This document shows, piece by piece, positions 16,079 to 61,179 of a stretch of 64,000 nucleotides of DNA; within the stretch, counting starts at the first letter, position 1; each line of letters starts with the position of its first letter. The DNA is from an uncultured Bacteroidales bacterium (GTDB lineage Bacteria > Bacteroidota > Bacteroidia > Bacteroidales > UBA10428). A program made the translations under genes and the position numbers. A model generated the notes under the pieces. The model saw only the letters and a list, made by a program, of their open reading frames with translations, ran no database searches and was not told the origin of the DNA. The DNA is taken from contig CAVPIY010000005.1 of assembly GCA_963705125.1 (NCBI GenBank), positions 20,793 through 84,792 of the forward strand. The letters are read 5' to 3'.

Positions 16079-18088
16079 ATGTTTCTTTTTCTGGTTGTTT
16101 CCGTTCTGATCTTCACCATCTTAATTGTCCTGGTTAAGGAAAGGCACAAAGGTACAGTGGCATTATCCGGTGTACTGGTGAATGCAGTACTCAGCTCATC
16201 GATTGCCATTGGTGCCCTGCAGGGACATCCCTGGTCTGAAACGGTTCAAGGCGGGAATGTATTCGGAGAAATACCGATCAGGGTCGATGGACTTTCAGCC
16301 TGGTTCATCCTGCTGACCAATTTCACTATGATTACCGGAATCTTGTATGGCCGTCAATACCTGAAGAAATGCAATGCTCTGCCGGCAAACCTCAGTCTTC
16401 ATTATATTAGCTACATCCTGAATCAGGCAGCACTCACCGGTGTGTTCTTTATCCAGCACGGGCTGGCCTTTATCTGCACATGGGAGATCACAGCGCTGTC
16501 CGCCTTTATTATGGTGATCTTTGAACATGGCCGGATGGAAACACTGAAAGCCGGTATCAATTATCTGATCCAGTCACATATCAGCATCATCTTCCTTACC
16601 CTTGGCTTTATCTGGGTATATTCTTCCACCGGTTCATTCGATTTCTCAGCCATAAGCGATTACAGCAATGCGGGTGCACCGGAAGCCGGATTGATTTTGT
16701 TCCTTGCCTTTTTTGTCGGTTTTGCCATCAAGGCCGGTTTTGTACCCTTTCATACCTGGCTGCCACTTGCCCATCCCGCCGCACCCTCCCATGTTTCCGG
16801 TATCATGTCGGGTGTCATCATTAAGGCCGGAATTTATGGCATCCTGCGGATGCTTATGCTGATCCCTGATAATCATCTTGTGCTGGGTTATTGTATTCTC
16901 ATCATATCCTTTATCTCGGGTATTTATGGTGTCATGCTTGCTATTCTTCAGCATAATATTAAAAAACTATTGGCCTATCACAGCATTGAGAATATAGGCA
17001 TCATCGGTATCGGGATAGGCATTGGGGCCATCGGAACCGGACTGGGACAGCCCTTTCTGGCTTATGCCGGATATGGGGGGGCCCTGCTTCATACACTGAA
17101 CCATTCCCTGTTCAAATCCCTGCTGTTTTACAGCACCGGAAATGTTTACCAGGCCACCCATTCCGTTCATATTGAACACATGGGCGGACTGATCAAAAAA
17201 ATGCCCCGGACAGCCATTCTCTTTCTGTTAGCTGCACTGGCCATATGCGGACTTCCGCCCTTTAACGGTTTCATTTCCGAATTTCTCATTTATACCGGTC
17301 TGTACGGGGCAATGGGCACTCATCAAATATCAGCTGTTGTGATAGTCCTTGTCATCGGAGGTCTGGCCTTGATAGGTGGTCTGGCCCTGCTTTGCTTTAC
17401 CAAAGCATTCGGCATCATTTTCCTGGGAACAGCAAGAAACCGGCAAAGCGGTTTGGCTACGGAAGCCTCTTCAGCTATGATGTATCCCAATTATCTGGTA
17501 GCCCTTCTGATCATGATGATCGGACTGTTCCCCGGACTTTTCATCAACCTGCTCCAGAAACCGGTTGAGGGTCTTTCAGGCATTACACTGACCCTGCAAT
17601 ATTCCGAACTTACAGATCTGATGCAAAGGATCAGTTACTCCGTATGGGGTCTGATCCTGCTAACTGTTGTTCTGTTTTACATCCGGAAAATCGTGACCGG
17701 CAGGAAACCAGTCAACATGCAACCTACCTGGGGTTGCGGTTACACGACTGCATCACCTGCCATGCAATATACAGCCAATTCATTTGTGCGTTCTTATACC
17801 AAGCTCATCAAACCCCTTATTATCATGAATAAGACCAGGGATGAAATTCCGGATATCATCCCGGCCCCCATCCTGGCCGAAACGCATTATCACGACAAAA
17901 TTGAAACGGGTCTGATCGACTGGCCGGTAAGAAACCTGAAAGGATTTCTCAGGAGGTTTAAAATCCTCCAGAACGGCAGTGTACAGTTTTACGTGCTGTA
18001 TGGTGTGGTCTTTATTGCCATCAGCATTACCATACCGCTCATCTTTTTTGCAGGACAATACCTGATACAATTGCTGAAACAGTTATAA
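16079..18088 (+). CDS. HyfB/HycC-like antiporter-type membrane subunit (NuoL/M/N family) of a hydrogenase-related complex
   Basis: 669-aa polytopic ORF. It retains the conserved TM5 Glu (TWEITAL, Glu136 at 16484-16486) and the TM7 Lys context (AIKAGFVPFHTWLP, Lys218 at 16730-16732). The HyfB-type C-terminal extension is present (PTWGCGY...MQYTANSF). Confidence 0.85.
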   Translation: MFLFLVVSVLIFTILIVLVKERHKGTVALSGVLVNAVLSSSIAIGALQGHPWSETVQGGNVFGEIPIRVDGLSAWFILLTNFTMITGILYGRQYLKKCNALPANLSLHYISYILNQAALTGVFFIQHGLAFICTWEITALSAFIMVIFEHGRMETLKAGINYLIQSHISIIFLTLGFIWVYSSTGSFDFSAISDYSNAGAPEAGLILFLAFFVGFAIKAGFVPFHTWLPLAHPAAPSHVSGIMSGVIIKAGIYGILRMLMLIPDNHLVLGYCILIISFISGIYGVMLAILQHNIKKLLAYHSIENIGIIGIGIGIGAIGTGLGQPFLAYAGYGGALLHTLNHSLFKSLLFYSTGNVYQATHSVHIEHMGGLIKKMPRTAILFLLAALAICGLPPFNGFISEFLIYTGLYGAMGTHQISAVVIVLVIGGLALIGGLALLCFTKAFGIIFLGTARNRQSGLATEASSAMMYPNYLVALLIMMIGLFPGLFINLLQKPVEGLSGITLTLQYSELTDLMQRISYSVWGLILLTVVLFYIRKIVTGRKPVNMQPTWGCGYTTASPAMQYTANSFVRSYTKLIKPLIIMNKTRDEIPDIIPAPILAETHYHDKIETGLIDWPVRNLKGFLRRFKILQNGSVQFYVLYGVVFIAISITIPLIFFAGQYLIQLLKQL

Positions 18089-18090
18089 TC

Positions 18091-19005
18091 ATGCAAGTAC
18101 TAAGCCTGTTGCTGATCATCATGACCAGTCTGTTCTTTACCGGGATCGTCATCCGGGCAAAAAGCATATTCTCAGGCGGAAAGGGCCCCGGGATACTCCA
18201 GCCAATGCGGGACATAATCCGTTCATTCCGGAAAGGATCGGTTTTCAGCCAAACCAGCAGCATCATTTTTCAGCTGGCCCCTGTCATCTATTTTGCCAGC
18301 CTCCTCATGGCCATCCTGTTTATACCTTTTGGCAATCAGCCGGGGATCATTTCATTCAAGGGGGATTTTGTGCTGTTTGCCTATATACTTGCATTGGGTA
18401 AGTTCTTCATGATCATTGCAGCGCTCGATACAGGAAGCAGCTTCGAAGGCATGGGAGCCAGCAGGGAAGCTCTCTTCTCCATGCTGGTTGAACCTGCTTT
18501 TTTTATGCTTATGGGCTCACTGTCTCTGCTAACCGGATATACTTCCTTTGCGGGTATATTCAGTGCCCTGCATTTCGGCTCCTACACGTCTTACGGTATA
18601 GGCATTCTGGCTTCATTTGTGTTCATCACCATTGCACTCATTGAAAACAGCCGCATGCCGGTGGATGATCCGAAAACCCACCTGGAACTGACCATGGTGC
18701 ATGAAGTGATGATCCTCGATAACAGCGGATTCGACCTCGGACTGATCATGTATGCCATAAACCTCAAATTTGCCCTGTACGGGGCCATTATTGCCAATTT
18801 TTTTCTTACCCCCGGATTTCAGCTGTATTATTCCATTCCGATTTATATTGCGGTGCAGGTGGTTTTTGCTATCCTGGTCGGTGTAATCGAATCATTTTCC
18901 GCGCGGTTCAGGATGAATCACAACCCGCAGTTCATCCTGATGTTCACTTCCATCTCCCTGCTTATTTTCCTGGGTGTATTGCTGATGCTTGGTAAAATCA
19001 TATAA
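18091..19005 (+). CDS. HyfC/HycD-like (NuoH-family) membrane subunit
   Basis: 304-aa polytopic ORF starting 2 nt after the preceding stop. NuoH/HycD-like motifs are present (GPGILQP.RD, ENSRMPVDDPKTHLELTMVHE). Confidence 0.8.
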   Translation: MQVLSLLLIIMTSLFFTGIVIRAKSIFSGGKGPGILQPMRDIIRSFRKGSVFSQTSSIIFQLAPVIYFASLLMAILFIPFGNQPGIISFKGDFVLFAYILALGKFFMIIAALDTGSSFEGMGASREALFSMLVEPAFFMLMGSLSLLTGYTSFAGIFSALHFGSYTSYGIGILASFVFITIALIENSRMPVDDPKTHLELTMVHEVMILDNSGFDLGLIMYAINLKFALYGAIIANFFLTPGFQLYYSIPIYIAVQVVFAILVGVIESFSARFRMNHNPQFILMFTSISLLIFLGVLLMLGKII

Positions 19006-19016
19006 CCCGGATAACC

Positions 19017-19646
19017 ATGATTAACATTTTGCTGATAACCTTTACAATTACCCTCATATATATCGGCATGGCGAACCGGTTATTGACCTATATCCGGCTT
19101 ATCGCATTTCAGGGATTTCTGCTTTTCGGGGTGGCCTTTATTGAACTGATCGAGATCAATATGATAAACCTCATCTTTGTTCTGCTCGAGACCATTGTCA
19201 TCAAAGCCATTGCCATTCCGTTTTTCCTTAAATATATTCTCGACCGGAACAACATCACCCGGGAAGCTGAACCCTTTGTATCCAATTTCGTCTCTGTTGT
19301 CATCATAACAGGCATTATACTGGGATCATTTTTCCTGTCCGGCCTCGTGCAGGAAAACCAGGTCGGAAACATGTATTTCACCGTAGCTCTCTCCGCCCTG
19401 TTTACAGGTTTGTATATCATCATAACCCGGCGTAAGATCATCACACATGTTATGGGCTATATGGTCCTTGAAAACGGTGTTTTTGTCCTTTCCCTGGCTG
19501 TAGGGAGTAAAATGCCCATGGTGGTCAACACCGGTATCCTGCTGGATATTTTTGTAAGTGTGATCCTGCTTGGCATTTTCGCGGATAAAATCGGAGATGT
19601 ATTTGATGAACAAGATGTTGGACAGTTAAGAAACCTGAAAGACTGA
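19017..19646 (+). CDS. HyfE-like (NuoK-related) small membrane subunit
   Basis: 209-aa hydrophobic ORF. Its position and size match hydrogenase-4 component E. Confidence 0.7.
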   Translation: MINILLITFTITLIYIGMANRLLTYIRLIAFQGFLLFGVAFIELIEINMINLIFVLLETIVIKAIAIPFFLKYILDRNNITREAEPFVSNFVSVVIITGIILGSFFLSGLVQENQVGNMYFTVALSALFTGLYIIITRRKIITHVMGYMVLENGVFVLSLAVGSKMPMVVNTGILLDIFVSVILLGIFADKIGDVFDEQDVGQLRNLKD

Positions 19647-19651
19647 ACAAT

Positions 19652-21091
19652 ATGCATGATATGATAATGGGAATTTATTTATCGGGTTCACTGTTCATTG
19701 GCCTGTTGTTCTATTTTCTGAGAAACCATATCCCGCAGATCTTGCTTGCCGGTTCTTTCATTTTGCTGCAAAGTACCCTGGCTGTATATGAATACTTGCA
19801 TCCCGGCTTCACCCAGCTTGTCTATTTTACACCGGATGCCCTTGCCATTCTTTTCCTGGTCGTCATCAGCATTGTTTGTATCCCGGCGTTTTATCACAGT
19901 TTTGTCTATTTCTCAAAGCATCCCTATAAACCCCGTGAACAGGGTATGTATTTTGCTGCCATGGTGGTACTTACCGCATCCCTGAGTGCTGCCTATTTGT
20001 CCAATCACATCGGCCTCACCTGGGTATTCGTGGAGCTGACAACCCTGAGTGCATCTGCCCTGATCTATCACCGGCGGAACAAACTGACCCTCGAAGGCAC
20101 CTGGAAGTATATCTTTATCTGTTCCATCAGCATAACCCTGGTATTTATCGGCGTGTTGTTTGTCACTGTCGCCGTGCAACAGCAAGGAATACATGATCTG
20201 TTTTACAAAGACCTGTCTCTTCATGCCGGAAGCCTTAATGTATTCTGGCTTAAGCTTGCGTTCCTTTTCATTTTTACCGGATTTACGGCAAAGGCCGGAC
20301 TCGTGCCCATGTATACAGCCGGCATCGATGCGAAGGATAATGCCCCATACCCGGCTGCCGCCCTGCTGGCGAGTGTGCTGATGAACGTAGGCTTTATCGG
20401 TATTTTCCGGTTTTACGAGATTACAAGCCATACCGCCATTTTTAGATGGACCAACAACATCGTACTGATCTCCGCCCTGTTATCTGTATTTGTGGCTGCG
20501 GTTTATATGCTACGGGTCAAGAACATCAAAAGAATGATGGCCTATTCTGGTGTTGAACACATGGGAATCGTGATGCTTGGACTGGCTGCAGGCGGTATTG
20601 GCTATTATGCGGCCATTCTTCACCTGGTATTGCATTCCTTTGCCAAACCCGCGCTTTTCTTTCAGTTCGGACAAATATACAGGACTTACGGCAGCAAGAG
20701 TGTGTATGATGTGGGGAATTACTTCAAATACAACATGACCGGCGCGCTTGTCTTGTTGATCGCCTTTTTTGTGATCACTGCCATGCCACCCTCCGGCATG
20801 TTTGTGAGCGAATTTCTTGTTTTCCGGTCTTTGTTTGAGTCGGGAAACCTATGGGTGCTTATCATCGTGCTGATATTGCTTACCACCATCATCTGGGCCT
20901 TCGGGAAAAATGTTTTTAAAATGCTGTTCATCAAACCCATCGATTTTGATGACACCAAGGTTGAGCCTGTCCCGTTTTCGGAATCCATAAGCCAGTTTTT
21001 GCTTCTTGCCCTGGTGGTTTATTTAGGGCTGACTCCTCCGGATGAGCTGGTAGTCCTGATCCGGGAAGCCATTGGTACTTTGCCGCACTGA
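19652..21091 (+). CDS. HyfF-like antiporter-type membrane subunit (NuoM/N family)
   Basis: 479-aa polytopic ORF with a conserved Glu context (WVFVELTTLS) and a Lys context (FTAKAGLVP). Confidence 0.8.
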   Translation: MHDMIMGIYLSGSLFIGLLFYFLRNHIPQILLAGSFILLQSTLAVYEYLHPGFTQLVYFTPDALAILFLVVISIVCIPAFYHSFVYFSKHPYKPREQGMYFAAMVVLTASLSAAYLSNHIGLTWVFVELTTLSASALIYHRRNKLTLEGTWKYIFICSISITLVFIGVLFVTVAVQQQGIHDLFYKDLSLHAGSLNVFWLKLAFLFIFTGFTAKAGLVPMYTAGIDAKDNAPYPAAALLASVLMNVGFIGIFRFYEITSHTAIFRWTNNIVLISALLSVFVAAVYMLRVKNIKRMMAYSGVEHMGIVMLGLAAGGIGYYAAILHLVLHSFAKPALFFQFGQIYRTYGSKSVYDVGNYFKYNMTGALVLLIAFFVITAMPPSGMFVSEFLVFRSLFESGNLWVLIIVLILLTTIIWAFGKNVFKMLFIKPIDFDDTKVEPVPFSESISQFLLLALVVYLGLTPPDELVVLIREAIGTLPH

Positions 21092-21114
21092 TTCATGATA
21101 AAACAACTGCCACA

Positions 21115-22608
21115 ATGAATTCTTTATCAGTAAAAAATAACGAGTCAGTTCCCATATCGGATATCCCGGTCCTGCCTTACGATGATTTTCTGGAGATAAA
21201 TACAACCCGGGCCAAAGATGTATACGTTCACTGTGTGATCTACTTTGGCTGGCCGGCCGGTGAAAAGATCAGATTGTTCTGCTGCATGGCAGATGATGCG
21301 AAAGGAATTCTCATGATCTCTTCATCTGAAATAAAAAAAGGGGAAACTTATCCCTCGTTTACTGCAAAACATCTGGCCTTTCACCCTTTTGAACGGGAGA
21401 TGCACGAGATGCATGGGATTCAGTATGCGGATCATCCGTGGCTGAAACCCCTTCGTTTCCCGGCTTACCATGCGGGCAATGGGCTGTCGATGGCACAATA
21501 TCCTTTCTACCACATCGAGAGCGAGGAGCTGCACGAGGTGGGTGTTGGGCCGATCCATGCGGGGATCATTGAACCCGGGCATTTCCGCTTCATCTGCAAC
21601 GGGGAACAGATCCTGCACCTCGAGATACAACTGGGTTACCAGCACCGGGGTATCGAGCAACTTTTCCTCGATCGGAAAACCTTGCTGCAGCGCACAATTC
21701 TGGCCGAAAACATTGCCGGTGATTCGGTGGTGGGGCACACCACGGCCTTTGCCAATCTGTGGGAAAGCCTTTGCGGCTTTCTGCCGGATGACGATATTCT
21801 GTACGCCAGAACAGTGGCAGCCGAGCTGGAAAGAATAGCCATTCACACCGGTGACCTGAGCGCCATTTGCACAGATATTGCTTACCAGCTGGGAAGTTCG
21901 GTATTTGGCAGACTCCGGACACCGGTAATCAATACCTTTCAGGAATGGTGCGGTAACCGCCTGGCAAAGGGGATCATCCGGGCGGGCATGAACCGGTATC
22001 CGCTGAACCAAGTGATGGCTGATGCCCTCATCCGGCTGTTCGATAATTATGAACCCGATTTTAATGAAATGTACCAGCGAATGAAAACCCTGCCCAGTAT
22101 CCTGGCCCGGCTGGAAAGGACCGGCACTGTAACTGCGGATCACGCTGAACGGATTGGGGCCGTCGGGTTAGTCGCCAGGGCATCGGGCCTGATGCGTGAC
22201 ATCCGGTGGACACATCCCTATCTGCTTTACGGTCAGCTGCATCATCAGCCGATCATCAAGCACCATGGCGATGTATATTCAAGAACCCAGATCAGGAAGC
22301 AGGAGATCACCCAATCGATAAAGTATATGCGTGACCTGGTAAAGGAAATACCTGATTGTCTGACCGATGCAACGATCAAATCACCCCTGCCCGATTCATT
22401 CGTCATTTCCCTTACCGAAGGCTGGCGGGGCGAAATATGTCATTGTGCCATCACCAATGGATCAGGAGATCTTGCACTATATAAAATCAAAGACCCTTCA
22501 CTGCACAATTGGCTGGCCCTTGCACTGGCCGTCAGGAACAATGATATTTCTGATTTTCCGATCTGCAATAAAAGCTTTAACCTGAGCTATTGCGGGCACG
22601 ATTTATAG
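21115..22608 (+). CDS. HycE/HyfG/NuoCD-like large subunit lacking the NiFe-binding cysteine motifs
   Basis: 497-aa ORF with a NuoC-like N-terminus and a NuoD/HycE-like core (GPIHAGIIEPGHFRF, LGYQHRG). Where group-4 hydrogenases have R.CG.C...H, the sequence reads ENIAGDSVVGH (Ala201, Ser204, His208; 21715-21738). The C-terminus reads FNLSYCGHDL-stop instead of DPC..C..R/H plus an extension. Confidence 0.8.
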   Translation: MNSLSVKNNESVPISDIPVLPYDDFLEINTTRAKDVYVHCVIYFGWPAGEKIRLFCCMADDAKGILMISSSEIKKGETYPSFTAKHLAFHPFEREMHEMHGIQYADHPWLKPLRFPAYHAGNGLSMAQYPFYHIESEELHEVGVGPIHAGIIEPGHFRFICNGEQILHLEIQLGYQHRGIEQLFLDRKTLLQRTILAENIAGDSVVGHTTAFANLWESLCGFLPDDDILYARTVAAELERIAIHTGDLSAICTDIAYQLGSSVFGRLRTPVINTFQEWCGNRLAKGIIRAGMNRYPLNQVMADALIRLFDNYEPDFNEMYQRMKTLPSILARLERTGTVTADHAERIGAVGLVARASGLMRDIRWTHPYLLYGQLHHQPIIKHHGDVYSRTQIRKQEITQSIKYMRDLVKEIPDCLTDATIKSPLPDSFVISLTEGWRGEICHCAITNGSGDLALYKIKDPSLHNWLALALAVRNNDISDFPICNKSFNLSYCGHDL

Positions 22609-22656
22609 GACTTCCAGAAACTGTAACCATAGCCGCTAATAGAAAAAAACGAAACC

Positions 22657-23406
22657 ATGATCTCTGATATCAAGATATTAATCCATCAGGGGAAACAGTA
22701 TATACCCGATATAACCACGGCCGGCGTGCCCGGTATTTTCCGGGGAAGGCCTGTTATTTCATATGAAAAAACAGATGTGAACCAACTGGTGGAATTATGT
22801 CCCACCGGGGCCATCGCTCCTGATCCGTTGCGCATTGATCTGGGAAGATGTGTTTTCTGTGGCGAGTGCCAGTTTGCTTGCCCTTCCGGGATCACCTTCA
22901 CCAAAGATTATAAAATGGCTTCCTGTTCACGTGAAGACCTGATTATACATGAAGGCCGGAATGAACCCATAACCATCCGGCCTGAACAGGTCCGTAAAGA
23001 GATCCGTAGATATTTCGGGCGATCGCTTAAATTGCGTCAGGTTTCAGCAGGTGGTGACAACAGCTGTGAATGGGAGCTGAATGCTGCCGGGAATGTGAAT
23101 TTTGATATGGGGCGGTTTGGGATTGAATTTGTTGCTTCACCCCGCCATGCCGATGGTATTGTAATCACCGGACCCATTACCCGGAACATGTCGGAACCCT
23201 TACAAATATGTTATGATGCGGTGCCTCTTCCGAAAATTGTCATCCTGGCCGGTACCGATGCCATCAGCGGGGGTATTTTTGCCGGGAGTGGAGCGCTCGA
23301 CAGGTCATTTCTCGAAAGGTACCCTGTGGATCTTTATGTTCCGGGAAATCCGGTACACCCGCTCACTTTCATAAACGGAGTGCTCGGTTTAATCCGTACC
23401 GGATAA
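22657..23406 (+). CDS. Fusion of a degenerate ferredoxin-like (HycF/NuoI-like) domain with a HycG/NuoB-like small subunit lacking 3 of 4 cluster cysteines
   Basis: 249-aa ORF. The N-terminal part has a lone ELCPTGAI plus one full CVFCGECQFACP motif. The C-terminal part has NuoB/HycG signatures (RFGIEFVASPRHADGIVITG, PKIVILAG, ISGGIF, DLYVPG). The canonical Cys positions read Asp134 (23056-58), Cys137, Asp201 (23257-59) and Asn231 (23347-49). Confidence 0.8.
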   Translation: MISDIKILIHQGKQYIPDITTAGVPGIFRGRPVISYEKTDVNQLVELCPTGAIAPDPLRIDLGRCVFCGECQFACPSGITFTKDYKMASCSREDLIIHEGRNEPITIRPEQVRKEIRRYFGRSLKLRQVSAGGDNSCEWELNAAGNVNFDMGRFGIEFVASPRHADGIVITGPITRNMSEPLQICYDAVPLPKIVILAGTDAISGGIFAGSGALDRSFLERYPVDLYVPGNPVHPLTFINGVLGLIRTG

Positions 23407-30993: not shown

Positions 30994-31779
30994 TTAATTC
31001 ATTTCCTGAATAAATTCTCCAATAGAGAGAATACGCTTACTGTTTGCTTTATTAAAAAGCAAATGCTCAAAATCTTTCATCTTCTTATTCAAATCTACCG
31101 ATTTCAACATTCCGGCAGTTACAGCTTTGAGTTCCTCCAGGTTATGAATGCCGCGCTGTAACGACAAAAAGTCATAGTCAGGTTTTGTAAATGCCAGCAG
31201 AAACATAGCATCATAAAAATCACGGCCTTTCTGTCGCGAAATCATGGCCGATAGTTTCATCGCACATATAGCTTCATCTGTTGGTACAGGAAAAGAGAAA
31301 TAGAATCCACAACCTTTGATATTGACCATTGCTTGTTTGTAAATAATTTGTTGATCCTGACCTTCGATTTTAATCAAAAAACGTTCTTCTTTATGTCCTG
31401 ATAATCCTAAATCAAAAAGGAGTTCAGGAAAATGAATATTTCTCCGGTACGCTTGTAACCTTTCATTTTCCCTGTCTCTTATTTCAACATGCATTCCATT
31501 CCGATGCAAAAACTGTAAAATAGCATCCGTCATCTCCATAAATTCATCTTTCGATAAAGCTTTACAATCAAAGTCCAAATCTTCTGAAAACCTGTCAATA
31601 CCCTTTACCAGCCGAAGGTTAGTTCCACCAATAAAAGTAATTTTTCGAATGTAAGGAGTTGTTGACAAAAAATCGAGAATAAGCAATTGCAAATACTCCT
31701 TTAGCATGAATTTCTGATACAATGCATTATCTCTCCATCTTTCAGGAAAATAGTTCTTTATGATTTCTAATTGTATCAT
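30994..31779 (-). CDS. abiEii: AbiEii/AbiGii-family nucleotidyltransferase toxin (type IV TA / abortive infection)
   Basis: 261-aa ORF with an NTase-fold N-terminus (FIGGTNLRLVKGIDRFSEDLDFD) typical of AbiEii. Its ATG overlaps the upstream gene's stop by 4 nt (ATGA). Confidence 0.8.
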   Translation of the reverse strand: MIQLEIIKNYFPERWRDNALYQKFMLKEYLQLLILDFLSTTPYIRKITFIGGTNLRLVKGIDRFSEDLDFDCKALSKDEFMEMTDAILQFLHRNGMHVEIRDRENERLQAYRRNIHFPELLFDLGLSGHKEERFLIKIEGQDQQIIYKQAMVNIKGCGFYFSFPVPTDEAICAMKLSAMISRQKGRDFYDAMFLLAFTKPDYDFLSLQRGIHNLEELKAVTAGMLKSVDLNKKMKDFEHLLFNKANSKRILSIGEFIQEMN

Positions 31780-32393
31780 AATTTATAGCTTTTTTTCAGG
31801 CTATCTAATCTTTTTCTCAGTGCATTGTTTTTAAATAAAAGAGCATAAGCCTCCATTTGATTAAGGTCAAAATTGTCTTTCATAAAATCTTCATCCAAAC
31901 GTAGCTCTTCCAATTCCTTTTCAGTATTATAGAAGGGAAAGAGATAGAGCAAATCAAGGAGTGCTTTTTCAGGCCTTGCAAGTTGCACTGTTCTTCCATT
32001 CGCAATGGGTTTGAGGTCATAGCCGAACATCAGGTCCTCACGTACACTTTTATAAGAAAACACTCCAAAATCGTTATTAAAGCTGGTTGTTTTCAGTGAG
32101 CAGACGCTAGTTATTTGCAACACAGCTTCCGGTATCATTCCATAAAATGCCAGGGCGGTTTGCAGACTAACATAGGATGGCCGATAGATACGATTGGCAA
32201 AATACAGGGCCAAATCGGGATTGCTCTTGTATTCGGGAAAAGTATAATAACCTTGTCTAAGTCGCACCAGCAAACCCTTCTGTGTCCATCGCACAAAATT
32301 GTTCCTATCGAAATTTGGTTGCCAGGCATACACTTGATTGATGCTAAAACAAGCTAAATCGAACATTTTATTTCTAAATTCTAAATAATTCAT
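31776..32393 (-). CDS. abiEi: AbiEi-family antitoxin / transcriptional regulator
   Basis: 205-aa ORF. The N-terminal winged-helix-like segment is FSINQVYAWQPNFDRNNFVRWTQKGLLVRLRQGYYTF, and the C-terminal AbiEi_4-like part is PSYVSLQTALAFYGMIPE. It is translationally coupled to abiEii. Confidence 0.8.
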   Translation of the reverse strand: MNYLEFRNKMFDLACFSINQVYAWQPNFDRNNFVRWTQKGLLVRLRQGYYTFPEYKSNPDLALYFANRIYRPSYVSLQTALAFYGMIPEAVLQITSVCSLKTTSFNNDFGVFSYKSVREDLMFGYDLKPIANGRTVQLARPEKALLDLLYLFPFYNTEKELEELRLDEDFMKDNFDLNQMEAYALLFKNNALRKRLDSLKKSYKL

Positions 32394-56294: not shown

Positions 56295-57968
56295 TTATAA
56301 ATTAAACTTCTTTTTGTTAGCGATGGCTTCCTCATACCCCGCATCTGCATGCCGGTATATTCCCATGGCCGGATCATTATGGAGCACCCGGGAAAGGCAG
56401 GCGGCAGCCCTCTTTGTGCCATCGGCCACCACCACCATGCCGGCATGCTGGGAATAACCTATGCCCACCCCTCCGCCATGATGAAAGGATACCCAGGTAG
56501 CACCGCCACTCGTATTGGCCATCAGGTTCAGCAATGGCCAGTCGGAAATTGCATCACTTCCGTCCTTCATTCCCTCGGTCTCCCGGTATGGCGATGCCAC
56601 AGAACCGCAGTCGAGGTGATCACGGCCGATCACGATCGGGGCCTTTAACCTGCCTGATTTAACCAGTTCATTGAAAATAAGTCCGGCCTTTTCCCGTTCT
56701 CCCATCCCCAGCCAGCAAATCCTGGCAGGCAGACCCTGACAGGATATCTTCTTTTCCGCCTCCTTCAGCCAGTTGATCAGGTGCGTGTCATTTGGGAAAG
56801 CTTCCATCAGGGCATCGTCAGTCACCAGGATATCTTCGGGATCACCCGACAAAGCAACCCACCGGAAGGGACCCTTGCCCTGGCAAAATAACGGACGGAT
56901 AAATTCAGGCACAAATCCCGGGTAGTATAAGCATCGGCTTCCCCTCCCTGCCTGGCAAATTCGCGCAGGTTATTGCCATAGTCGAATACCACACTGCCCT
57001 GTTTTTTCATCTCGAGCATAAATCCCACATGACGGGCCATACTTTTCAGGGATCTCAACCGGTACTCAGCAGGATTCTCTTTTCGCATCGCCATTGCTTT
57101 TTCCAGCGTGATCCCGGCCGGAACGTAACCATTCAGCGGATCATGGGCAGAAGTCTGATCCGTCAGTACGTCCGGAATTAATCCCTCATTCAGCATTTCT
57201 TCCAATACATCACCAATATTGCCTACCAATCCGACCGACAAGGGCTTTCCCTTTTCCATCGACTGCATGATGATGTGTTTTGCTTCCGTGTAATTATCGG
57301 TCATCTTATGAATATATTGTGTCTGCAGCCGCTTCCTGATCCTTTCCGGATCAACGTCCACCCCCAGAAAAGTATATCCTGCCATGGTTGCAGCCAGAGG
57401 CTGAGCTCCGCCCATACCGCCAAGACCACCTGACACCAGTAACTTGCCATGGGTTTTCCCCTCGAAATATTTTCGGCCACATTCGGCAAAAGTTTCGTAA
57501 GTTCCCTGCAAAATGCCCTGAGAACCGATATATATCCAGCTGCCGGCCGTCATCTGCCCATACATGATCAAACCACGTTCCTTTAGCTTGTTCAAAGTAA
57601 TCCCAGTTTGCCCATGCAGGAACCAGGTTGCTGTTTGCAATCAATACCCTGGGCGCTTCGGTATGTGAACGGATAATTCCCACGGGTTTACCCGACTGGA
57701 TGAGCAGGCTCTGATCATCATGCAGTGTGAGCAGGCTTCTGATAATCTCCTGTAAGGCCTCGGGATTACGGGCTGCCTGTCCGGTTCCCCCATATACGAT
57801 CAATTCGGCCGGATTCTCAGCCACTCCGGGATTCAGGTTGTTGAGCAGCATCCGCAATGGTGCTTCAGTCTGCCAGCTCAGTGCATGCAGGGTATTGCCG
57901 ACCGGGGCCCTGTAATTCGGATGAGTGGCATAGTTTTTAATAAATTCCGAATAATTCATGGGTCTCAT
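56295..57968 (-). pseudogene. hutU: Urocanate hydratase split into three ORFs by two single-base indels
   Basis: Piece 57351..57968 ends its true frame at ...[15 protein letters not shown]. Piece 56822..57640 reads [35 protein letters not shown]...GGEADAY. Piece 56295..56912 reads [32 protein letters not shown]... The junctions are near 57585-57600 and 56920-56930. Confidence 0.88.
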
Positions 57969-59508
57969 TTTTTAAATCTGTTTTCAGCTCAAGGGCCAAT
58001 GCGGATGTAAGTGAAGTGAGCTCACGCTGCTGCACGATCTGAATGGCCGATTGGATATAATCTCCCAGGAATACATCCTGATCAATATGCGGAATGCTTT
58101 GCCGCACATGTTCATGGCAGGCATTGATCAGGGGACCTGACTTCAGCGGTTTGCGGAAATCGAAACCCTGGGCTGCACAGAATAATTCGATTCCCAGAAT
58201 CTTCTCCAGGTTATCAACAATTTGCAAAGCCTTCCGGGCACTTATCGAACCCATACTGACGTGATCTTCCTGCCCGAGTGAAGTGGGTATGCTGTCTGCA
58301 CTGGCCGGGAAGCAGAGTGATTTGTTCTCGCTTGCCAGAGCAGCGGTTGTGTATTGTGGGATCATAAAACCTGAGTTCAGCCCGGTTTCTTTCATCAGTA
58401 ATTTGGGGAGGCCTTCGATTGTATCCATAAGCGAAAGATAAATCCGGCGGTCGGCGATATTCCCCAGTTCGGATGCTGCCAGTGCGGCATAATCGAGCGG
58501 CAGGGCCAGGGGCTGTCCATGGAAATTGCCTCCGCTGATGGCTTTATCCTTGCTGAAAACAATCGGATTATCGGTCACTGAGTTCAGTTCGGTGGACAGC
58601 AATTGCTTCAAATGCAGATAAGCATTTCGGGAGGCTCCGTGCACCTGGGGAATACATCGCAGGGAATACGGATCCTGCACCCTGCTGCAATTCCGGTGCG
58701 ATTGAACGATTTCAGAATCTACCGATCAGGGTTCGCATCCGTTCAGCCACATATTGCGTGCCTTCATAAGGCCTGAGCGCATGCAGGTCCGGATCGAATG
58801 CCTTTACCGATCCCAGCATGGCCTCCAGGTTCATGGCTGCCACGATGTCGGCGTGGTCAAGACAATTCTGGAATCGTTCAGCGAACTGTACCGCATGGGC
58901 TGCAATGAACTGTGTGCCATTGATCAGGGCCAGCCCTTCTTTTGGCCCCAGTTCAAGGGGAGAAAGACCGTGCCATTGACAGGAAATCTGCAGCAGGTAT
59001 GGTTTCCCCGTGATAAAAGACACGGCCATACCCGATGAGGGGCAGGAACAAATGCGCCAGGGGAGCCAGGTCTCCTGATGCACCGACAGATCCCTGTGCG
59101 GGAACACAGGGAATGATATTCTGTTCGATATGCCAGCAGATCCGGTTGATTGTTGCGGGCGAAATGCCTGAATAACCCATGGCCAGGGAATGTACTTTCA
59201 GGATCATCATGAGCCGGCTGATCTCAACGGGAATAATATCACCCACCCCCACAGCATGACTAAGCAGACAGGTTATGCTGCAGTTTGCGGGTATCCTCGT
59301 CCGAAATCAGGGTGGTACATAATGGCCCGAAGCCGGTATTGATCCCGTAAACGATATTTCTGCCGGATACAATCTGTTCAACCTCGGCCCGGTTTTTTTG
59401 AATCCGTGCTGCCACTTCAGCGGTAATTTCCGCCTGAATTTTCCCCCTGCTGATATCCAGAGCAAGTCCGGGGGTCAGTCTGTCAATGCCATAGCGGAAT
59501 GTCATCAT
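57937..59508 (-). pseudogene. hutH: Histidine ammonia-lyase split into four ORFs by three single-base indels
   Basis: The pieces read through as MMTFRYGIDRL...KLQHNL, then LLSHAVGVGD...GSVGASGDLAPLAHL (MIO-forming ASG), then ...ADFLSM, then HGLSPLELGPKEGLALINGTQF...RTLIGR, then SEIVQSHRNCSRVQDPYSLRCIPQVHGA... The junctions are near 59262, 58985 and 58712. Confidence 0.88.
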
Positions 59509-59821
59509 GTTATTAGTAAATTTAGTCAATTGATTAAAATAACACCAAACAAGGAACATCGATCTTAGAATAATGAAGTAATTCTTCGTCATTCATCATT
59601 CGGCGTTCCTTGTTCGATGTTGGTTCAATCAGCACATTTCTGAAGCTTATAAAAACTCATCGCAACTAAAATATTAATTATTACTCTCTAAAGAATGACA
59701 TTTCTGTACCAATTGAACCGACTTTACACTGCCAAATATCATATTCCGGCATGGCCAAAATCACTAACTTTCGTTGATTTTCGTTGTTGTTATAACTAAG
59801 CTACATTTCAAAACTTTTTTT

Positions 59822-61179
59822 ATGGCCGTCAAGAACATTATCATTATCGGTGCTGCAGGAAGAGATTTCCACAATTTCAACACATGTTTCAGGGATAATC
59901 CCGATTACCGGGTGGTTGCCTTTACAGCCGCCCAGATACCCGATATTGCCGGCCGTAAATATCCCGGCAGAATTGCAGGAAGTCTGTATCCTGATGGCAT
60001 TCCGATCTATGCGGAGGCCGATCTCGAAAAGCTGATCAAAGAACTAAAGTGGATGAATGCGTATTTTCATACAGCGATATACCCTATAGCACGAGTCATG
60101 CACATCGGTGCCCGCGTAAATGCAGCAGGCGCTGATTTTACCCTGCTGGGTGCAGGAAAGAATATGCTGAAAAGCAAAAAGCCCGTGGTGGCCGTAGGGG
60201 CTGTCCGCACAGGCTGCGGCAAATCACAGACCTCCCGCCGGGTGATCGAGATCCTGATGAAAATGGGACTGAAGGTAGTTGCTGTAAGGCATCCGATGCC
60301 CTATGGCAATATTGTGGAACAAAAAGTGCAGCGTTATGCCACACTGGATGACCTGGTGCAACACAAATGTACCATTGAGGAAATGGAAGAGTATGAACCC
60401 CATGTGTCCCGGGGCAATGTGATCTATGCAGGTGTTGATTACCAGGCCATCCTCACGGCCGCTGAAAACGATCCCGACGGTTGCGATGTGATCCTCTGGG
60501 ATGGCGGCAACAACGACTTCCCCTTTTATAAGCCCGATCTGACCATCACAGTGACCGATCCCCACAGGGCCGGCCATGAACTTTCTTATTATCCTGGCGA
60601 AGTAACACTGCGACTGGCGGACGTGTGTGGTGATCAATAAAATTGACACTTCCTCCCCCGAAAACATACAAACCGTACGTGAAAACATCACCTATGCCAA
60701 TCCGAAGGCCATGGTTATTGATGCCGCATCCCCCATCACGGTGGATAAGCCCGGAACTGATCCGGGGCAAAGCATGCCTGGCTATCGAGGATGGTCCCAC
60801 CCTCACCCATGGCGAGATGAAAATTGGTGCCGGAACGGTAGCTGCCATGAAATGGGGCGCCAGCAAGCCTGGTTGATCCCAGGCCTTATGCGGTGGGAAG
60901 GATCAAAGAAACCTTCCAGACCTATCCTGGTATCGGTACCCTGTTGCCTGCCATGGGATATGGAAAGCAACAGGTATGCCGACCTGGAAAAGACCATCAA
61001 CGCCACCCCCTGCGATGTCGTTGTGATTGGCACCCCCATTGACCTGAACCGGATTGTGAAGATCAGTCAAACCTACAGTCCGGGTTACCTATGAACTTCA
61101 GGAAATTGGCTCACCCAATCTGCAAATGGTGCTGGAGGAATTTGTGAATAAGATCAGGAAACGAATAGTGAAAAACTAA
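59822..61179 (+). pseudogene. Cyclic 2,3-diphosphoglycerate synthetase-like P-loop protein, heavily frameshifted (about seven indels)
   Basis: It starts MAVKNIIIIGAAGRDFHNF and has the P-loop GAVRTGCGKSQTS. The coding sense hops between frames 2, 3, 1, 2, 3 and 2: ...LRLADV / VINKIDTSSPENIQ...VDKP / ELIRGKACLAIEDGPTLTHGEMKIGAGTVAAMKWGA / VDPRPYAVGRIKETFQTYPGIGTLLPAMGYGKQQV / YADLEKTINATPCDVVVIGTPIDLNRIVKI / VRVTYELQEIGSPNLQMVLEEFVNKIRKRIVKN-stop. There is also an internal out-of-frame patch at 60040-60085, where VDECVFSYSDIPY is readable in another frame. The family name is from memory. Confidence 0.6.

Follow-up and report, generated by a model that had tools for sequence, protein, structure and literature searches.

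The ehr operon lies at positions 16079 to 23406 of a 64-kb stretch of DNA from an uncultured Bacteroidales bacterium (contig CAVPIY010000005.1); the whole of this stretch, 64,000 nucleotides, is called the window here. The operon comprises six intact open reading frames (ORFs) on the + strand, in the order ehrA-B-C-D-L-S, with intergenic gaps of 2, 11, 5, 23 and 48 nucleotides. The locus very probably encodes an Ehr complex, built on a Hyf/Ech-like chassis of the complex I superfamily, and one that belongs to a derived subclade of Bacteroidota and Ignavibacteriota without the NiFe site and without the distal and proximal iron-sulfur (Fe-S) clusters. Since the mid-2000s, Ehr complexes have been listed as systems that resemble hydrogenases and whose function is unknown. 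The name, which stood for Ech-hydrogenase-related and later for energy-converting hydrogenase-related, comes from the Geobacter literature, where a citation in PMC7894505 credits it to Coppi. It predates Marreiros et al. 2013, to which an earlier note on this DNA, made from the sequence alone, had attributed it.

The ehrA gene (16079..18088) encodes an antiporter-like protein of the HyfB/NuoL type (669 amino acids (aa); Pfam PF00361, 2.7e-56), and ehrD (19652..21091) encodes another of the HyfF/NuoN type (479 aa; PF00361, 1e-39). Between them, ehrB (18091..19005) encodes a NuoH/HycD-like subunit (304 aa; PF00146, 9e-30) of the kind that joins the membrane and peripheral arms, and ehrC (19017..19646) encodes a small HyfE-like membrane subunit (209 aa; NCBIfam HyfE, 5e-18) whose C-terminal half is NuoK-like, residues 119-183 corresponding to Pfam Oxidored_q2. 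The large subunit, encoded by ehrL (21115..22608; 497 aa), fuses a NuoC-like part with a NuoD/HycE-like part, and the small subunit, encoded by ehrS (22657..23406; 249 aa), fuses a ferredoxin-like part (HycF/NuoI) with a NuoB/HycG-like part (Pfam Fer4 and Oxidored_q6). The best NCBIfam match of EhrA is hydrogenase 4 subunit B, with 473 bits against a cut-off of 667, and that of EhrD is hydrogenase 4 subunit F; complex I models are matched with 141 bits against 360 (NuoD), 82 against 116 (NuoB) and 53 against 305 (NuoH). All NCBIfam matches of the six proteins fall below the curated cut-offs, which indicates that none of them is an ordinary Hyf, Hyc or Nuo subunit.

The operon is preceded by murA and a DUF4290 gene and followed by a convergent DUF434/DUF5616 gene. 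The 3' ends of ehrS and of this convergent gene overlap by 18 nucleotides (23389-23406), leaving no space between them for an intrinsic terminator. A Pfam scan of about 55 of the 58 non-overlapping window ORFs of at least 90 aa found no hyp, hycI, formate dehydrogenase or NuoEFG-type genes, and the neighboring genes have carbohydrate, housekeeping and histidine-utilization functions. The earlier note had read the order of HyfB-, HycD-, HyfE-, HyfF-, HycE- and HycF+HycG-like genes, their spacing, the murA and DUF434-like flanks and the lack of maturation, formate dehydrogenase or other electron-input genes in the window directly from the letters, and the ORF list, Pfam and NCBIfam agree with it on each of these points.

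EhrL has lost the cysteines that hold the NiFe center in hydrogenases. Its best matches in the PDB are Escherichia coli HycE (7Z0S_E, 1e-32) and Pyrococcus MbhL (6CFW_L, 5e-30), and the PDB alignment sets RVCGICGFAH of HycE against NIAGDSVVGH of EhrL, and DPCYSCTDR against NLSYCGHDL. When EhrL is aligned with E. coli HycE and HyfG by using MAFFT, the HycE ligands C241, C244, C531 and C534 correspond to A201 (codon 21715-21717), S204 (21724-21726), S491 (22585-22587) and G494 (22594-22596), all on the + strand, so both cysteine pairs are absent, as had been claimed. The protein terminates at D496-L497, and thus has no C-terminal extension left to be processed. These changes are shared by relatives: S491, G494 and D203 (codon 21721-21723) are each found in 79 of 79 EhrL orthologues, in which position 201 is Ala, Thr or Ser and position 204 is Thr or Ser. 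Position 203 is Asp, rarely Glu, across the whole clade that lacks NiFe cysteines, and is Ala, Val or Ile in HycE, HyfG and five hydrogenases with all four cysteines. The hydrogenase motifs EPGHFR, HRGIE and RG..H are still present. Tyr87 and His38 of Thermus Nqo4 are quinone-binding residues according to established structural work, and the PDB alignment places G202 and I152 of EhrL at these positions, so EhrL does not have a quinone site of the complex I type either. The codon of Glu153 is at 21571-21573.

Two sets of EhrL cysteines were considered as metal sites and dropped. C161, C442, C484 and C493 are not an obligatory site, as C442 varies across the clade and position 493 is Cys in 59 of 79 orthologues. 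The N-terminal, NuoC-like domain of the Fe-S-poor family carries H39, C40, C56 and C57 (21229-21285), which do not vary among the 79 orthologues. However, the sister clade with an intact set of proximal cysteines has Arg39 and a variable position 56, and EhrL of Rikenellaceae keeps the set only in part; it was therefore rejected as a general replacement metal site.

EhrS is similarly remodeled. Its PDB matches are MbhJ (1e-23), HycG (9e-20) and NuoI (1e-7), and in an alignment with MbhJ, HycG, HyfI and NuoB the four cysteines of the proximal cluster correspond to D134, C137, D201 and N231. Three of the four are thus replaced, by Asp, Asp and Asn, in accord with the earlier reading. This former proximal (N2-type) site spans 23056..23358 on the + strand, with codons at 23056-23058 (D134), 23065-23067 (C137), 23257-23259 (D201), 23347-23349 (N231) and 23356-23358 (H234). 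Among 76 orthologues, D134 and H234 are found in all, D201 and N231 in 75 each and C137 in 69. Near-invariant columns make up roughly 32% of the alignments overall, so the near-invariance of the substitutions at the NiFe and Fe-S sites across 76 to 79 orthologues is not attributable to chance. An Asp-ligated cubane cluster at the former N2 site was considered and dropped as unlikely, because at most one cysteine is left and it is not invariant.

In the ferredoxin-like part of EhrS, the first (distal) CxxCxxC is absent, and the remaining cysteines are C48, followed by Pro, and C65-x2-C68-x2-C71-x3-C75. Ligands are swapped between the two motifs of 2x[4Fe-4S] ferredoxins, and C48, C65, C68 and C71 (22798..22869, + strand) consequently form one full set, the sole complete [4Fe-4S] ligand set in the protein. 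Each of the four is conserved in 76 of 76 orthologues and is kept in every Ehr small subunit examined. C75, a ligand of the lost cluster, is Cys in 5 of the 76 and Phe in 65. From the ligand scheme of Thermus Nqo9, we take the remaining cluster to be the medial, N6b-type cluster, next to the proximal site. The proposal that the ferredoxin module retains ligands for a single cluster is thus borne out. The description of the catalytic subunits as redox-dead fits the loss of the NiFe center and two clusters, and is slightly overstated in view of this invariant site; the Ehr complex of the window is apparently not wholly cofactor-free.

The membrane arm keeps its ion-translocating residues. An alignment that included E. 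coli NuoL/M/N, HycC and HyfB/D/F matches E136, K218, K249 and E401 of EhrA (codons 16484-16486, 16730-16732, 16823-16825 and 17279-17281, + strand) with NuoM E144, K234, K265 and E407, and all four are invariant in 58 of 58 orthologues; Glu136 and Lys218 had already been recognized as the hallmark residues. At the same NuoM positions EhrD has E128, K214, N245 and E387, invariant in 74 of 74 orthologues, and N245 is matched by N263 of HyfF. When EhrB is aligned with HycD, HyfC and NuoH, its DTGSSFEGMGASREA motif is near-invariant in the family and the HycD-type motif DTGS.F...GASREA is retained. The loop between transmembrane helices 5 and 6 of EhrB (TM5-6 loop; PVDDPKTHLEL...DNSG) is modified, yet invariant or nearly so in the family. 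EhrC conserves two NuoK-type membrane carboxylates, Glu in MVLENG and Asp in LLD.

Relatives of the operon are numerous. A word-indexed search with EhrL finds thousands of homologues, and the top 120 (64-90% identity) are mostly from metagenome-assembled genomes of Bacteroidales and other Bacteroidota. Their labels conflict, and include "Ni,Fe-hydrogenase III large subunit", "NADH-quinone oxidoreductase subunit C" (or C/D) and "hypothetical protein". A scan of one genome per species gave at least 587 confirmed matches, of which the best 80 (L001-L080; 60-78% identity) were used as the set of genome loci. These 80 include Bacteroidales, Prolixibacteraceae, Lentimicrobiaceae, Rikenellaceae, Saprospiraceae, Chitinophagales, Cyclobacteriaceae and Flavobacterium, as well as the isolate Arcticibacter eurypsychrophilus, Ignavibacteriaceae and Melioribacteraceae. 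The order of ehr genes is kept throughout. Of the 58 loci that extend over the 5' part, 43 have another HyfB-like gene (ehrA1) ahead of ehrA, giving seven genes, and the six-gene form with one ehrA is found in the window and about 15 others, including the Arcticibacter and Ignavibacteriota loci. The family is thus not uniform in how many antiporter modules it has. Identity to the window proteins averages 54% for EhrA, 70% for EhrB, 64% for EhrC, 61% for EhrD, 64% for EhrL and 70% for EhrS, so the peripheral subunits are at least as constrained as those of the membrane.

Clustering of the flanking ORFs in the 80 genome loci and 24 metagenome loci revealed no conserved partner gene next to the operon, and the murA/DUF4290 synteny is limited to the six closest relatives. 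The commonest neighbor is a gene for a Crp-family regulator, found in 9 of the 80 loci (for example, L066:416-1165) and located divergently and directly upstream in five of them. The protein has cNMP-binding and HTH_Crp_2 domains and no FNR-type cysteines, and its gene is not present in the window.

The position of the window operon within Ehr was examined by using HMMER against representatives of clusters at 50% identity, which gave 545 matches at E <= 1e-30. NiFe cysteines are missing in 108 of the 113 nearest full-length representatives (32-52% identity), and the C-terminal pair is almost always replaced by Ser and Gly. One distant Ehr, at 37% identity, shares the six genes and the fused ferredoxin+NuoB small subunit with the window and has all 12 Fe-S cysteines, and Ehr complexes at 41% and 49% identity also keep all Fe-S cysteines. 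Distant Ehr loci also have their subunit genes in this order. The fusion, which the earlier note had singled out in its Bacteroidota example, is thus the normal form of the Ehr small subunit. Among the representatives looked up, the D/x/D/N state outside the window family is found only in L088, at 52% identity.

In a neighbor-joining tree with 100 bootstraps, which contains no named Ehr reference such as that of Geobacter, the window family groups with L088 at 96% support. This grouping lies inside an Ehr clade of 100% support, the remaining members of which have kept the proximal cysteines. Below the Ehr clade are the true hydrogenases, HycE and HyfG are further out, and NuoCD is outside. The large subunit therefore sits in the Cys-less clade, apart from the true hydrogenases, and the assignment to Ehr made in the earlier note is upheld. 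Because the clade with the cut electron wire is nested among Ehr that retain the proximal cysteines, loss of the proximal cluster is derived. The missing Fe-S wire is accordingly the mark of a derived subclade and not of Ehr generally.

Clusters appear to have been shed more than once in this part of the tree. A metagenome scan of the clade of the 49% representative found the proximal cysteines in 14 of 14 members, the medial ligands in all, and loss of the distal CxxCxxC in about five, and we interpret this as independent loss of the distal cluster in several sister lineages. A further lineage, L109, has N/C/D/A at the proximal positions, where the proximal cluster was seemingly lost again or in a different way. 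The Rikenellaceae version, which represents a cluster of 336 member sequences, has D/V/E/A at these positions with its medial cysteines intact. Two other loci have unusual arrangements. In a Bacteroidales metagenome-assembled genome (JAFPZF010000018.1; L117:10001-11503), an orphan EhrL-like gene encodes 500 aa with roughly 50% identity to EhrL of the window, has no NiFe cysteines and the same C-terminal KSFDLSYCGHDL, and directly follows mutS; no other ehr genes occur within 10 kb on either side of it. Metagenome contig Ga0209417_1000050 (L107:4895-19492) carries two tandem Ehr-type operons, the first of which ends in a shortened small subunit.

Comparison of the subclade lacking the wire with its wire-intact sister reveals how little else has changed. 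Among conserved EhrS positions, 77 are shared and the two groups differ only at D134/C, S136/G, D201/C and N231/C. In EhrL, 128 conserved positions are shared and 15 differ, and the shared ones include E153, D203, H208, R438, E440, H443, S491, G494 and D496. Because the differences in EhrS are confined to the ligand sites and S136, the conserved function seems not to need the relay.

The subunit names were taken from Geobacter sulfurreducens, in which EhrA-1, A-2, B, C, D, L and S are encoded by GSU0739-45; all subunits are more abundant on formate, and their function was not shown (PMC7894505). Compared by description only, the Geobacter and window operons have the same subunit set and order and neither has NiFe cysteines. 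The seven-gene form of Geobacter, with two ehrA genes, is the commonest among relatives of the window, which itself has one. Ehr complexes occur in many phyla as group-4-like systems without NiFe cysteines and with unknown roles, and some genome studies speculate on formate dehydrogenase partners (PMC6349859, PMC10284858, PMC7304191, bioRxiv 10.1101/765248). HydDB explicitly leaves them out as non-hydrogenases (PMC5037454). Those at 37, 41 and 49% identity retain 12 Fe-S cysteines, whereas the window subclade has lost the distal and proximal clusters. Full-text literature searches that did not cover Marreiros et al. 2013 yielded no description of an Fe-S-less Ehr small subunit or of a Bacteroidota Ehr, and the Fe-S-poor variant is, as far as could be checked in that literature, previously undescribed.

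E. coli hydrogenase 4 (HyfB-I) and the hydrogenase 3 formate hydrogenlyase (FHL; HycC-G, 7Z0S) share with the window a gene order like that of HyfB-C-(D)-E-F-G-H-I. In contrast to them, the window complex has no NiFe ligands, proximal or distal clusters, HycI-type extension, or HyfA/HycB or FdhF partner, and it fuses the HycF-like and HycG-like proteins. The nearest true [NiFe] hydrogenases (P0210, P0212, P0237 and P0240; about 34-37% identity) have the same operon order as the window and, like EhrL, end in ...DR or ...DL without an extension, with KSFNL preceding the C-terminal ligand pair. They differ in that all four NiFe cysteines are present and Asp203 is matched by Ala or Val, and the closest of the true hydrogenases has separate genes for a ferredoxin-like protein (114 aa) and a NuoB-like protein (158 aa) with all Fe-S cysteines.

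Other known systems share parts of this design. MBS (Mbx) of Pyrococcus (6U8Y) has also lost the NiFe site, and its pocket and proximal cluster have been repurposed (PMC7684303). However, MBS contains three [4Fe-4S] clusters, of which the proximal one, held by three Cys, is the catalyst, and it has Mrp-type small subunits (PMC7684303), whereas the window complex does not have three clusters, and the match of MBS to EhrL is weak (1.5e-8). Mrp antiporters have antiporter-like subunits with the same Glu/Lys pattern as EhrA and EhrD and run without redox input (PMC9568556), and they are the functional analogy that we prefer. They lack NuoB/C/D/H/I-like subunits, and the Ehr complex of the window in turn lacks recognizable MrpB/E/F/G homologues; its Mrp-like parts are MrpA/D-like and NuoK/MrpC-like only, not the seven-subunit MrpA-G set. 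In complex I (Nuo/Nqo), NuoL/M/N are homologous to EhrA and EhrD, NuoH to EhrB, NuoK to EhrC, NuoC+D to EhrL and NuoI+B to EhrS. The window complex differs from it in lacking the N2 cluster, the quinone Tyr and His, NuoA/J and NuoE/F/G.

In FHL, MBH, MBS and complex I, three clusters less than 14 Å apart feed a pocket at the junction of the large, small and NuoH-like subunits (PMC9474812, PMC7684303). With the entry and exit clusters gone, electron relay to the EhrL pocket is implausible, and so the complex is most likely not a redox-driven pump. The repeated shedding of clusters, the lack of further change at conserved EhrS positions and the lack of a linked donor gene point likewise to a function that is independent of through-electron transfer. 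Perhaps, then, the complex is a gradient-driven ion translocator that operates independently of an electron relay, with the former catalytic arm gating or regulating transport, although from sequence we propose this only tentatively. Taken as a whole, an Ehr complex acting as such a translocator is the best explanation that we can offer, at somewhat less than an even chance of being correct.

A gradient-driven translocator of this kind could work as follows. The intact Glu/Lys chain of EhrA and EhrD, the E-channel-type residues of EhrB and EhrC and the invariant β1-β2-type loop of EhrL would constitute coupling machinery that has been kept, and through it ion movement in the membrane arm would be coupled to conformational or protonation changes at the arm junction. 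Existing ion gradients would drive the complex as an exchanger of protons and some other cation, or as a gated proton path. The remodeled pockets, namely the E153/D203 pocket of EhrL and the Asp/Asp/Asn site of EhrS, might form a cytoplasmic ion vestibule or gate. The two carboxylates of EhrS, which are D/D at positions 134 and 201 in the window family and L088 and D/E in Rikenellaceae, may mimic the -2 charge of an oxidized [4Fe-4S](Cys)4 cluster, or the cavity may be filled by a divalent cation that they bind. The retained medial [4Fe-4S] cluster would have a structural role or would sense redox state or O2. Flavobacterium, Chitinophagales and Arcticibacter are aerobic lineages. The proximal cluster and NiFe site are the oxygen-labile parts of FHL (PMC9474812), so their replacement would be sensible in a family with such members.

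Several observations count against a gradient-driven translocator. The operon encodes no recognizable MrpE/F/G/B-type small subunits, so that a classical Mrp-type Na+ route is not evident, and the Na+ path of Mrp, MBH and MBS has been placed in small Mrp-type subunits (PMC7684303). The EhrL pocket (E153, D203, H208, R438, E440, H443 and D496) looks to be conserved more like an active site than a passive cap, and the invariant ligands of the remaining [4Fe-4S] cluster could mean that redox chemistry persists. Also, L109 has a single carboxylate at the former cluster site, which weakens the idea of charge mimicry.

The remaining [4Fe-4S] cluster is the starting point for an explanation in which the complex is still a redox enzyme, its lone medial cluster, laid open by the loss of the distal one, taking electrons directly from ferredoxin or flavodoxin and driving pumping as in Ech, Mbh and Mbs, with the electrons passing to a substrate or to a non-cysteinyl metal at Asp134/Asp201/Asn231, perhaps with His234. 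The medial ligands are retained by all 76 orthologues and by every other Ehr small subunit examined. A metal ion could plausibly be bound by Asp, Asp, Asn and His, and several sister lineages without the distal motif keep the medial and proximal ligands, so entry at the medial cluster may be normal. MBS even uses an Fe-S cluster itself as the catalyst (PMC7684303). We nonetheless consider this explanation unlikely, as C137 is absent from 7 of the 76 orthologues and is replaced by Val in Rikenellaceae, and no donor or acceptor gene is linked in the 80 genome and 24 metagenome loci. We know of no cubane cluster that has Asp, Asp, Asn and no more than a single Cys as its ligands. Established structures put the distance from the medial site to the pocket at likely more than 20 Å. 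This gap amounts to two relay steps, and relay clusters in FHL are less than 14 Å apart (PMC9474812). In another explanation, the proton-motive force, acting through the membrane arm, would power non-redox chemistry or ligand handling at one or more carboxylate-lined pockets, for example, vectorial conversion of CO2 and bicarbonate, as by the Cup modules of cyanobacterial NDH-1 or by DAB, or loading and release of a cation or metal. Neither the coupling elements (the GPIHAGIIEPGHFRF loop of EhrL and the TM5-6 loop of EhrB) nor the pocket residues vary, the entire Cys-less clade is marked by Asp203, and the peripheral arm is as highly conserved as the membrane arm. However, no carbonic-anhydrase-like or other catalytic domain was detected, the same 80 and 24 loci contain no linked transporter or enzyme genes, with SulP-type genes nearby in only 4 of the 80, and the sequence gives no substrate, which together make such a catalyst improbable.

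A single retained cluster without partner enzymes would also suit a sensor that reports the proton-motive force, or redox or O2 state through this cluster, by a conformational signal and with no net transport, and the Crp-family regulator encoded beside 9 of the 80 loci could be viewed in the same light. Yet six or seven subunits, with two or three full antiporter modules that retain all pumping residues, are an expensive design for a sensor, no signaling partner is conserved among the 80 and 24 loci, and the Crp-like protein lacks the FNR-type cysteines; this possibility is quite remote. The missing metal ligands might finally suggest a decaying remnant of a hydrogenase operon. That is scarcely credible when the six ORFs are intact, orthologues with 60-90% identity occur in at least 80 species-level genomes from several orders and two phyla, and the substituted residues are themselves near-invariant. 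The same window even supplies a contrast, in that its hutU and hutH genes are each divided among three ORFs. The pseudogene or relic explanation is effectively refuted by this conservation.

At the most far-reaching, a prospect that we regard as doubtful, this Ehr subclade would give the complex I superfamily its first natural case of conformational ion-translocation machinery coupled to a partner other than electron transfer. The partner would be pure ion exchange, or else non-redox chemistry or cation binding at carboxylate-lined pockets, with Asp203 in place of the NiFe site and Asp134/Asp201/Asn231 in place of the N2-type cluster. The repeated independent loss of Fe-S clusters in neighboring Ehr lineages would in that case imply that the clade as a whole operates with no electron relay. 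It has long been asked how redox chemistry at the complex I junction can drive remote proton pumps. In the subclade, a natural variant, strong purifying selection acts on the pump and the coupling loops but the electron wire is cut, and Fe-S-poor Ehr thus offers a way to part the conformational machinery from the redox chemistry. The locus is valuable as a tractable natural "wire-less" relative of complex I: because the family is widespread, with at least one cultured isolate, A. eurypsychrophilus, and Rikenellaceae of animal guts among its carriers, it is open to genetics, metal analysis and cryo-EM. The routine misannotation of these genes as hydrogenase or NADH-quinone oxidoreductase can, moreover, distort metabolic reconstructions of Bacteroidota metagenome-assembled genomes.

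Other parts of the window contain split genes. On the - strand at 56295-59592, hutU occurs in three overlapping ORFs, which correspond to its N-terminal, Rossmann and C-terminal domains, and hutH is likewise found in three ORFs, matching profile positions 6-70, 168-251 and 267-466. The splits reflect either pseudogenes with frameshifts or errors in the local assembly, and the neighboring hutI-like and formiminotransferase-cyclodeaminase genes are uninterrupted. Adjoining the fragmented hut genes, on the + strand at 59774-61094, are two ORFs (288 and 155 aa) that overlap, have no Pfam match and look like one gene split by a frameshift. The window also contains, on the - strand at 30994-32393, a gene for an AbiEii-family nucleotidyltransferase toxin, preceded by an overlapping 205-aa ORF that has no Pfam match and probably encodes an AbiEi-type antitoxin.

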